Source of the DNA: a virus
Taxonomy: Duplodnaviria > Heunggongvirae > Uroviricota > Caudoviricetes
Virus record (IMG/VR): IMGVR_UViG_3300029643_000047
Direction: 5' to 3' (one strand)
Length of the DNA stretch: 6,720 bases
The notes beneath the pieces are model-generated. The model made no database searches, had not been told where the DNA came from, and saw only the letters and a program-made list of their open reading frames with translations. A program made the position numbers and the translations under genes. Shown piece after piece: positions 1-5,510 of this stretch (position 1 is its first letter; every line of letters starts with the position of its first letter).

Positions 1-156
1 ATCGACTCAAACATGAAGAAATGAAATGACTGAGTCAGCCGAGAAGAATTTCCCCGCTTATTCGCACCTTCCCTAGTATTTTATGTTATTTCGAATAATT
101 ATGCATCAGATTACCATCCTACAATTGTGCATAAAACGAGCATTTTGCTGATTTTT

Positions 157-4039: not shown

Positions 4040-4465
4040 TTAGTGCATCACCACAGCATTCCCTGCCGGGCCGCCGCGATTCATCTGGTCATACAAAACA
4101 ACCGCTGACGCAACAAAATCATCGACATCCTTCACCAGCCGATCCCTCCGTTCGACGATCTCACGGTAATATTCAGAACTGTGGCTGCGCATACGGGCCA
4201 CCAGCAAAGGCGGCATCGCCTTTTCGATCGCCGGTAACAGAGCCTGCATTTTTTCAACAGCATCAGGGGTGTCTTTATCCAGCCAACGGAAAATTTTCTG
4301 GGTATTACGGGCCAGGGCTTCCGGATGGCTGTCGTCGTACAGTTCAGGGAACGTCATCCCCAGTTCGAAATAAGTCCGGGCTATTTCAGCTGCAGGAACT
4401 TTCTCACCATCAGGGTATGCCCAGGCATTCATCGCCATGCGGATGTGCTCATGTTTGATTTTCAT
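4040..4465 (-). CDS. ydaT: YdaT (Rac prophage cII-like protein; toxic when derepressed)
   Basis: 141-aa ORF, start ATG 4465..4463, stop TAA 4042..4040. Its start overlaps the 3' end of ydaS by 17 nt. The translation (MKIKHEHIRMAMNAWAYPDGEK...) matches my recollection of YdaT, and the gene sits immediately after ydaS as in K-12 Rac. Confidence 0.85.
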   Translation of the reverse strand: MKIKHEHIRMAMNAWAYPDGEKVPAAEIARTYFELGMTFPELYDDSHPEALARNTQKIFRWLDKDTPDAVEKMQALLPAIEKAMPPLLVARMRSHSSEYYREIVERRDRLVKDVDDFVASAVVLYDQMNRGGPAGNAVVMH

Positions 4466-4772
4466 GAATCATTTGCCTCTTGATGCTTCGGGTATGATCG
4501 TTTTCGTCATTTGGTTGCTTCATCGACATATTCTGCGAATAACATGACGAGCGTCGTAAGTATGTCCAATCAACATCAGGACGAAGTTCTTCACACAGGA
4601 CACCACCTTTTGTTGCTCGTTCAATCGCAGGACATCTCTCAGCAGGTAACTGACGTACACCTTTGATCCATTGATTTACGCTTGGAGGAGATACACCTAA
4701 AAGCCTAGCCATTGCTGATTGCCCACCGACAACAGCACAAGCTCGTTTGAATGAATAGTTATCTTTTTTCAT
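4449..4772 (-). CDS. ydaS: YdaS (Cro-like HTH regulator of the Rac immunity region)
   Basis: Start ATG 4772..4770 with GGAG 8 nt upstream, giving 107 aa; the ORF track's longer form starts at a GTG at 4793 with no SD. HTH segment AMARLLGVSPPSVNQWIKGVRQLPAERC. Divergent from racR across a 124-bp operator region. Stop TGA 4451..4449. Confidence 0.85.
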   Translation of the reverse strand: MKKDNYSFKRACAVVGGQSAMARLLGVSPPSVNQWIKGVRQLPAERCPAIERATKGGVLCEELRPDVDWTYLRRSSCYSQNMSMKQPNDENDHTRSIKRQMIHENQT

Positions 4773-4799
4773 CGAATGAACTCCAAAAAACACGCAACA

Positions 4800-4829
4800 A
4801 TATTAGGCTTAGCCTAATGAAATTGTCAA
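4800..4829 (-). promoter_or_regulatory. pR-like sigma70 promoter for the ydaS-ydaT-replication operon
   Basis: On the minus strand: -35 TTGACA (plus 4829..4824), 18-nt spacer, -10 TAATAT (plus 4805..4800). The predicted transcript start is about 20 nt upstream of the ydaS ATG. The -10 overlaps operator site A and the -35 lies between sites A and B. Confidence 0.55.
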
Positions 4830-4868
4830 TAGGCTATGCCTAATACATCGAGAGTAGGGATTGCCTAA
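4802..4868. promoter_or_regulatory. Triad of operator-like inverted repeats (OR-like), consensus ATTAGGC-N3-GCCTAAT
   Basis: Site A 4802-4818 ATTAGGC TTA GCCTAAT has perfect 7-bp half-sites. Site B 4829-4844 ATAGGC TAT GCCTAAT and site C 4855-4868 TAGGG ATT GCCTAA are degenerate. Centre-to-centre spacing is about 26 and 25 bp. The sites lie between divergent racR and ydaS. Confidence 0.55.
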
Positions 4869-4896
4869 CGCGATGCGCATAGGAGACTATTAAGCA

Positions 4897-5373
4897 ATGC
4901 TTAGTGGTAAAGACTTAGGCCGAGCGATAGAGCAGGCCATTAACAAAAAAATTGCATCAGGAGCCGTCAAATCAAAGGCGGAAATCGCACGTCATTTCAA
5001 AGTCCAACCACCATCAATCCATGACTGGATTAAGAAAGGTTCGATAAGTAAAGACAAACTTCCAGAACTATGGCGTTTCTTTTCTGATGTGGTTGGTCCA
5101 GAGCATTGGGGGCTTAACGAATACCCCATACCAACCCCATCCACTTCAGATACAAAAAGTGAACTTTTAGACATAAACAGCCTTTATCAAGCCGCCTCTG
5201 ATGAAAAAAAAGCAATTGTGGCTTTCATCTTATCTGGAAATGCTACGGAGCCTAGTTGGGTTGATTATGACGTTCGCGCCTACATTGCCGCAATGGAAAT
5301 GAAGGTAGCTAACTATCTGAAAAATCAAGAATCAAAACGGAAAAGCCAGAACATCACCAAGACAGGAACTTAA
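4897..5373 (+). CDS. racR: RacR, prophage repressor (cI analog) with N-terminal HTH
   Basis: 158-aa ORF, start ATG 4897, stop TAA 5371-5373. The translation (MLSGKDLGRAIEQAINKKIASGAVKSKAEIARHFKVQPPSIHDWIKKGS...) matches my recollection of RacR. AGGAG lies 11 nt upstream of the ATG. The gene is divergent from ydaS and flanked on both sides by the same operator motif. Confidence 0.9.
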   Translation: MLSGKDLGRAIEQAINKKIASGAVKSKAEIARHFKVQPPSIHDWIKKGSISKDKLPELWRFFSDVVGPEHWGLNEYPIPTPSTSDTKSELLDINSLYQAASDEKKAIVAFILSGNATEPSWVDYDVRAYIAAMEMKVANYLKNQESKRKSQNITKTGT

Positions 5374-5447
5374 ACTTATATGGTCCGACGGGAAATTCCT
5401 AGTTCCCGTTAGTTAACTCCTACTACCTCTCCCACAAACCATCACCT

Positions 5448-5508
5448 ATTAGGTTGCGCCCAAATTATTAGGCATAGCCTATTGACAAGTAATTAGGCAT
5501 TTCCTATA
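5448..5508. promoter_or_regulatory. Second operator cluster (OL-like) downstream of racR with the same half-site motif
   Basis: Site D 5467-5483 ATTAGGC ATA GCCTATT is near perfect. Site E 5492-5508 ATTAGGC ATT TCCTATA has a degenerate right half. A weak third site at 5448-5465 has a good ATTAGG left half only. Sites D and E bracket and overlap the -35 and -10 of the promoter at 5482-5510. Confidence 0.5.
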
Positions 5509-5510
5509 GT
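5482..5510 (+). promoter_or_regulatory. pL-like sigma70 promoter with consensus -35 and near-consensus -10
   Basis: TTGACA at 5482-5487, exactly 17 nt spacer, TATAGT at 5505-5510. It fires away from racR into the downstream small ORFs. The 18-bp block GGCATAGCCTATTGACAA (5471-5488) is repeated in inverted orientation at 4840..4823 inside the pR-like promoter. Confidence 0.6.

Follow-up and report, generated by a model that had tools for sequence, protein, structure and literature searches.

The three inverted repeats that lie between the repressor gene racR and the divergent, Cro-like gene ydaS in the 6,720-nucleotide stretch of viral DNA studied here (IMG/VR record IMGVR_UViG_3300029643_000047; hereafter the window) very probably belong to the right operator in a Rac-type immunity switch, as its ydaS-proximal part, the same logic being repeated by a predicted operator-promoter cassette on the left, downstream of racR. 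The window, which is 100% identical to E. coli 2017C-4173W12 (RefSeq) and about 87% identical at the DNA level to K-12-type Rac, belongs to a Rac-like prophage and carries its immunity region. The original prediction, made from the letters alone, had presented the repeats as a lambdoid operator triad with half-site ATTAGGC and as a candidate binding motif for RacR and/or YdaS. This triad corresponds to the RacR operators already published and adds nothing to the work on K-12 Rac; the value of its discovery lies in the correct reading of a raw sequence.

The window was searched with ATTAGGC-N3-GCCTAAT at up to three mismatches, and 200 dinucleotide-preserving shuffles served as the null. Seven matches were obtained against a mean of 0.25 in the shuffles, none of which reached seven (0/200). 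All seven fall in two clusters, one on either side of racR, and over 13.3 kb of the identical prophage the matches with at most two mismatches are confined to these same two clusters. The right cluster holds four sites:

4802-4818, no strand: right-operator site centred at -87 from the racR ATG, ATTAGGCTTAGCCTAAT, a perfect palindrome (ATTAGGC-TTA-GCCTAAT, 0 mismatches)
4828-4844, no strand: right-operator site centred at -61, AATAGGCTATGCCTAAT (AATAGGC-TAT-GCCTAAT, 1 mismatch)
4853-4869, no strand: right-operator site centred at -36, AGTAGGGATTGCCTAAC (AGTAGGG-ATT-GCCTAAC, 3 mismatches, weak left half)
4889-4905, no strand: fourth right-operator site, ATTAAGCAATGCTTAGT (ATTAAGC-AAT-GCTTAGT, 3 mismatches), centred on A4897 of the racR ATG and equivalent to the published O3

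The geometry that had been read from the sequence is largely borne out. One perfect and two degenerate 17-bp inverted repeats are indeed present (0, 1 and 3 mismatches in the order given above), and their proposed spacing of 25-26 bp, or about two and a half helical turns, agrees with the 26 and 25 bp measured between the first three sites, neighbouring sites being 2.4-2.5 turns apart. The proposed range, 4802-4868, starts at the right nucleotide and ends one too early, the third site reaching 4869. The repeats had also been said to fill the intergenic region, which they do not: the triad covers 68 of its 124 bp (4773-4896), and the fourth site, absent from the original prediction, overlaps the racR start codon. 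This last site contains in addition the published off-target box of the controller protein C.Csp231I (ACTAAGCATTGCTTAAT, minus strand).

The right sites are laid over the promoters of both divergent genes, two elements of which are needed here:

4800-4829, minus strand: ydaS-ydaT promoter (PR-like), -35 TTGACA at 4829..4824, 18-bp spacer, -10 TAATAT at 4805..4800, 10/12 in a consensus scan
4883-4888, plus strand: counterpart of the -10 of PracR3, the leaderless racR promoter, GAGACT here versus GAGAAT in K-12, placed by alignment with K-12-type Rac

In the ydaS promoter, site 4802-4818 spans both the spacer and the -10 hexamer and is therefore OR1-like, and site 4828-4844 abuts the -35 hexamer, with a 2-bp overlap, and is therefore OR2-like. 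The hexamers of the ydaS promoter are the same in K-12, where they are documented by primer extension and by mutagenesis of the -10 (PMC9638921; PMC11879457), and PracR3 has been mapped and mutated there together with its leaderless racR transcript (PMC9638921). On the racR side, the hexamer TTGCCT (4861-4866), made of the ATT spacer and the right half of site 4853-4869 and lying 16 bp upstream of the PracR3 -10 counterpart, is a candidate -35 hexamer of the leaderless promoter; the invariance of the ATT spacer might also reflect another protein contact. Two further K-12 elements are altered in this allele, the PracR2 -10 (4847-4852; AGTAAG in K-12, ATCGAG here) and the PracR4 -35 (4650-4655; TTGACG in K-12, CTGACG here). 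Because elements of PracR2, PracR3 and PracR4 have all changed, the control of racR expression may differ from that in K-12.

Most of what is needed to interpret the right cluster has been obtained by others with the K-12 allele. Three variant GCCTAA/TTAGGC repeats were described in the 123-bp K-12 intergenic region by Krishnamurthi (2017, mSphere, PMC5700373), where electrophoretic mobility shift assays gave three RacR complexes on the whole region and one on a single-repeat fragment, chromatin immunoprecipitation followed by quantitative PCR gave RacR enrichment, repression of the ydaS promoter was found and the analogy with lambda was drawn. The transcription starts of ydaS and racR were then mapped, with TTGACA-18-TAATAT for ydaS (NAR 2022, PMC9638921), and the same work defined the ATTAGGC half-site and the operators O1-O3 as (T/A)TAGGC-n3-GCCTA(T/A) across Enterobacteriaceae, the spacer of O3 lying on the racR ATG. 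In its DNase I footprints the lowest RacR concentration suffices to protect the ydaST promoter, and protection of the racR-proximal part needs more RacR (PMC9638921), as the graded affinity suggested for the triad would have it. "Four inverted repeats" are mentioned in a 2023 paper (NAR, PMC11014345) in which RacR runs on size exclusion as an octamer and its regulon, ydaFG included, is described as uncharacterised. RacR binding, its order of occupancy, the promoters and the repression of ydaS are consequently known for K-12, and the doubt whether the exact operator had been mapped is settled by the footprints of PMC9638921. Given that the same sites stand at the same positions here, the mobility shift, immunoprecipitation and footprinting data (PMC5700373, PMC9638921) identify the motif as one that RacR binds. 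In the published model, the action of RacR is confined to the racR-ydaS intergenic region.

K-12 Rac is thus the same system (PMC5700373, PMC9638921, PMC11014345, PMC11879457; Krishnamurthi 2017 and the Wisniewska/Mruk group 2022/2023/2025). The window has all the sequence traits by which RacR operators were defined: ATTAGGC inverted repeats with a 3-bp spacer (0/1/3/3 mismatches at the four right sites), a site on the ydaST promoter, a site with its spacer on the racR ATG, and an adjoining RacR orthologue with the divergent ydaS-ydaT pair. The ATTAGGC half-site, the sites at -87/-61/-36/0, the ydaS promoter hexamers, the leaderless racR start and a YdaT box on the ydaT start are common to both. 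The window is nevertheless another allele (about 87% DNA and 90% RacR identity), in which the N3 spacers (TTA/GAC, TAT/TGT), the linkers and the PracR2/3/4 elements have changed while the half-sites are kept.

The same distinction between half-sites and surrounding DNA emerges from a wider comparison, for which 241 loci containing relatives of RacR were taken from genome and viral collections and reduced to 120 unique regions and 18 RacR protein clusters (27-98% identical); a viral search with protein alignment gave the same close relatives, and the divergent loci were reached only by distant-homologue queries. Half-sites hold 1.74-2.0 bits per position, the spacers of the strong sites 0.69-1.4 and the flanks 0.6-1.5. 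At site 4802-4818, for instance, the half-sites hold 1.93 bits and the spacer 0.69 (25 distinct Rac-type sequences), and at site 4828-4844 the values are 1.90 and 1.38, whereas the ATT spacer of site 4853-4869 (4860-4862) is invariant (2.0 bits) in Rac-type and other lineages alike. The motif search in Rac-like prophages that accompanied the original prediction as a check succeeds, with sites recurring at fixed positions when counted from the A of the racR ATG, at -87/-61/-36/0 in the E. coli Rac-type loci and at -60/-35/0 in every other genus. The Rac-type lineage has one extra operator unit, and the triad first noticed is not the conserved one: the triad shared across genera is -60/-35/0, and the perfect site at -87 belongs only to the four-site layout of the E. 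coli/Escherichia Rac type. The ATG-centred site is found in 17/18 lineages. Since the Leu codon 2 of racR is CTT in 17/17 lineages with Leu there, while Leu codon 7 takes all six Leu codons, the comparison indicates a constraint on the DNA itself at this site. An extension of the motif to Pseudomonas phage D14H, the N-terminal domain of which is about 52% identical, was not retained, only the ATG-centred site being left there at two mismatches or fewer.

The second cluster, which the original prediction likewise lacks, lies downstream of racR and comprises a weak site, a well-conserved pair and a predicted promoter:

5448-5464, no strand: candidate third left site, weak (ATTAGGT-TGC-GCCCAAA, 3 mismatches, left half alone well kept)
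5467-5483, no strand: left site A (ATTAGGC-ATA-GCCTATT, 1 mismatch), which shares its last 2 nt with the start of the -35 TTGACA
5492-5508, no strand: left site B (ATTAGGC-ATT-TCCTATA, 3 mismatches), the right half of which overlaps the -10 hexamer
5482-5510, plus strand: PL-like predicted promoter, -35 TTGACA at 5482-5487, 17-bp spacer, -10 TATAGT at 5505-5510, 11/12 in the consensus scan

This promoter points away from racR toward a DUF1391/ydfA-dicB-exonuclease-xis-int operon (gene order of the identical RefSeq record), the K-12 counterpart of which comprises ydaG, ydaF, kilR, racC, recET, xisR and intR. A 23-nt perfect inverted repeat (4823-4845 / 5466-5488) brackets racR, each of its arms consisting of one operator and a TTGACA(A) -35, so that racR sits between two mirror-image promoter-operator cassettes, PL and PR, which align across E. 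coli, Klebsiella and Proteus. Judged by sequence only, the locus has the second operator set on an early promoter beyond the repressor gene that is typical of lambdoid phages, in addition to at least three imperfect palindromes which separate the repressor gene from the divergent cro-like gene and overlap the promoters of both.

In the left cassette, the arrangement ATTAGGC-N3-GCCTA-TTGACA-N5-ATTAGGC-N3-(G/A)CCTAATAT (TATAGT in Rac-type loci) occurs in 13/18 clusters, sites A and B are always 25 bp apart and TTGACA is invariant across lineages; in site A the half-sites hold 1.98 bits and the spacer 0.93-1.38. From the racR stop to the pair the distance is about 100 bp, rising to 1.1-1.4 kb in loci with additional genes in between; most Rac-type loci also have the weak site of 5448-5464, at stop+83..86. 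The left pair occurs in two phages as well, Escherichia phage vB_EcoS-683R6 and Klebsiella phage KpF5, in the latter on the far side of a DUF450 gene. Among complete E. coli genomes, an 81-bp query over the cassette is matched in 1086/5426, as compared with 1085/5426 (about a fifth, O157:H7 strains among them) for the racR region, and RefSeq holds no annotation there. Left and right operators (OL-OR) lie 665-668 bp apart in Rac-type loci; elsewhere the separation is either 636-684 bp or 1.6-1.95 kb. No description of a cassette downstream of racR was found in the K-12 Rac papers examined (2017-2025), the older sbcA/kil literature and Jobling 2016 being outside that scope; the cassette is apparently undescribed, and its "unreported" status is provisional. 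It is in any case the expected lambda-style left operator and a modest addition, not a surprise, because related repeats have been noted at the downstream PL promoter of CP-933P (PMC8630535).

In the mechanism that we propose, RacR is a helix-turn-helix repressor that binds DNA through its N-terminal domain and oligomerises through its C-terminal one, its dimers occupying 17-bp operators of two half-sites each. As in K-12, sites 4802-4818 and 4828-4844 would be filled first and shut the very strong ydaS-ydaT promoter; 4853-4869 and 4889-4905, which are weaker and lie on the -35 region and start point of racR, would be filled at higher RacR and provide autoregulation. On the left, occupancy of 5467-5483 and 5492-5508 (plus the weak 5448-5464), on the -35 and -10 elements, would let RacR directly silence the early-left operon with its cargo of kil/dicB-type, recombination, xis and int genes. 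The identity and the conservation of all sites, the fourth right site and the left cassette included, are established here by the comparison of sequences, and the occlusion of the leftward promoter by RacR is suggested by sequence, conservation and expression data taken together. Indeed, K-12 ydaG, ydaF, kilR, ydaE and racC rise 40-70-fold when RacR falls, and recET, xisR and intR likewise rise upon racR silencing (published expression data). We infer, besides, that a RacR octamer could bridge OL and OR. The full proposal, namely a working left operator and promoter (5448-5510; in K-12, upstream of ydaG) that silences the early-left operon and is joined to the right operator by an octamer loop of about 0.66 kb, as with lambda CI, is nonetheless tentative, and we regard it as rather unlikely to hold in its entirety.

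Several observations weigh against this interpretation. The weak third left site is lost in some lineages (clusters 0, 2 and 4), and no left pair is seen in 5/18 lineages, two of which have only about 630 bp available beyond the stop. The RacR binding data cover only the right operator of the K-12 allele. YdaS and YdaT also act in the intergenic region, with a YdaT footprint over the ydaS promoter, and occupancy in vivo is therefore shared (PMC11879457). Leftward derepression could be indirect, through YdaS/YdaT or through prophage excision, and the RacR octamer has been explained by its authors through the four right-operator sites alone (PMC11014345). Helical phasing was considered as an argument on looping and discarded, as an OL-OR distance that spans 636 bp to 1.95 kb speaks neither for nor against it.

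The Cro-like YdaS may also use the palindromes as operators, ranking them differently, much as lambda Cro does, so that the motif would be common to both proteins; this sharing has in our view a little less than an even chance, because YdaS, RacR and the sites always co-occur and the literature is mixed. A YdaS-family gene accompanies every RacR lineage with the motif, as though the two proteins and the sites formed one module, yet with RacR and YdaS never apart in the fetched loci the comparison favours neither of them, and the attempt to assign the motif to one owner on this basis was abandoned. In CP-933P YdaS and the repressor leave overlapping footprints, and the first target of YdaS is the repressor promoter (PMC8630535). 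For K-12, YdaS is known to autorepress PydaST, inactivation of ydaS in the absence of racR raises PydaST 16-fold, so that YdaS acts near that promoter (PMC11879457), and RacR is said to compete with YdaS for operators (PMC11014345). Against this, YdaS is reported not to repress racR, unlike Cro (PMC9638921), and no YdaS footprint on Rac DNA was found in the Rac literature examined. A far weaker claim can be made for the CII-like YdaT, which in K-12 reduces racR expression and protects the -35/-10 region of the ydaS promoter in footprints (PMC11879457). That the repeats are recognition sites of YdaT instead of RacR is very improbable: the authors of the footprint find no palindrome or motif in the YdaT-protected region (PMC11879457), the defined YdaT box is different (TTGATT-N6-AATCAA), and the repeats are explained by the ATTAGGC logo together with the footprints of RacR (PMC9638921). 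Such a YdaT box is present in the window at 4455-4472 (TTGATTTTCATGAATCAT, one mismatch), where it overlaps the start codon of ydaT; the same placement has been described in K-12 and CP-933P.

The two remaining explanations deny a function to some or all of the repeats. Recent duplication or gene conversion of the ydaS promoter could yield the 23-nt perfect inverted repeat shared with the right operator, in which case the downstream cluster 5448-5508 would be an inert relic. This is improbable, since genera with 57-66% RacR identity still have the cassette, with near-invariant half-sites and TTGACA while spacers and flanks vary, its position relative to the leftward operon is maintained even where 1.1-1.4 kb of genes have been inserted, and the genes that face it are those derepressed 40-70-fold when RacR falls. 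As for functionless chance or low-complexity matches, general caution alone, short palindromes being apt to arise by chance, would plead for them; the shuffles, the conservation of position and half-sites over 18 lineages and the published RacR footprints (PMC9638921) refute this idea, to which we give practically no credence.

If the left operator works as proposed, it would explain directly the 40-70-fold derepression of ydaG-kilR-racC-recET-xis-int and would open a direct route from the loss of RacR to the excision of Rac, now attributed to YdaS and YdaT. The operator would then be bipartite, looping would tighten ydaS repression and racR autoregulation, and the left operator would offer an alternative reason for the RacR octamer. 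It also suggests that constructs with the intergenic region alone lack half of the operator system, and the left cassette may be useful for work on Rac and Rac-like prophages.

The divergent-promoter design that the original prediction had likened to OR1-OR2-OR3 of lambda stands, and the number of sites does not, four being present on the right instead of three. Lambda and Rac have in common a cro-like gene divergent from the repressor gene, several 17-bp imperfect palindromes that are occupied in a graded fashion over the lytic and repressor promoters, a leaderless repressor mRNA, an octamer-forming repressor and a second operator set on an outward promoter beyond the repressor gene. The operators of lambda are spaced 23-24 bp apart, close to but not the same as the 25-26 bp found here, and its OL-OR distance is about 2.3 kb, compared with about 0.66 kb in the window. 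Rac further differs in its four right and two to three left sites, in a YdaS that is reported not to repress racR and in its repressor: no Pfam family was matched by RacR in the Pfam scan, Peptidase_S24 included. Lacking this LexA-like self-cleavage domain of lambdoid repressors, RacR is CI-like at the DNA level, yet it is not a CI/LexA-family protein. The closest parallel outside Rac is CP-933P of E. coli O157:H7 (PaaR2/YdaS/YdaT, PMC8630535), which has four evenly spaced intergenic palindromes, a leaderless repressor gene, YdaS/YdaT-family partners and related repeats at a downstream PL promoter. PaaR2 and its half-site (GTTTAGTAA consensus) are unrelated to the RacR system, a toxin-antitoxin pair follows the repressor gene, and YdaS binding has been footprinted there.

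The genes that flank the right operator carry the names given to them from the sequence, in agreement with the RefSeq annotation and with the Pfam match to YdaS_toxin:

4897-5373, plus strand: racR, repressor gene, 158 aa, annotated racR in the identical RefSeq record, 90% identical to K-12 RacR
4449-4772, minus strand: ydaS, Cro-like helix-turn-helix gene, divergent from racR, Pfam YdaS_toxin (E = 3.8e-30) and P22_Cro (1e-8)
4040-4465, minus strand: ydaT, Pfam YdaT_toxin

The replication genes lie on the minus strand with ydaS and ydaT, divergent from racR. RNA elements were also considered. A terminator after the racR stop was not convincing (8-bp hairpin at 5387-5410, z = -1.8, no T run), a nut-like or structured element in the 179-nt leader downstream of the left promoter was dismissed because this leader folds no better than shuffles (z = +1.2), and no RNA family was detected in the whole window by an Rfam scan with E up to 1.

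Relatives of RacR display two variations on this architecture. In KpF5 (locus L242, 3149-4303) and in loci L172, L185, L201 and L125, 1.1-1.4 kb of extra genes stand between the repressor gene and the left pair. Because the genes inserted in these Klebsiella-type relatives occupy the position of lambda rexAB, they may by analogy be accessory or defence genes expressed in the lysogen. In Achromobacter (L011, 1501-2601; L013, 1501-2589), homologues of 362-366 aa combine a RacR-type N-terminal DNA-binding domain with a Peptidase_S24 domain (E = 2.4e-14 for one of them, Pfam), the C-terminal domain of RacR being different, and their loci have these operators too, at about -60/-36/0. The pattern resembles domain swapping in which the module of DNA-binding domain and operators is conserved.

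Finally, the Rac-like prophage carries an epoxyqueuosine reductase (QueH) gene at 259-945 on the minus strand, which is a metabolic or tRNA-modification cargo gene; the identical record has hokD just outside the window. JARKOR010000130.1 (L005), a 5.2-kb contig of a 'Candidatus Nanosynbacter' metagenome-assembled genome, also carries an E. coli Rac immunity region, complete with a 90% identical RacR and every operator site, and is most likely a binning contaminant.

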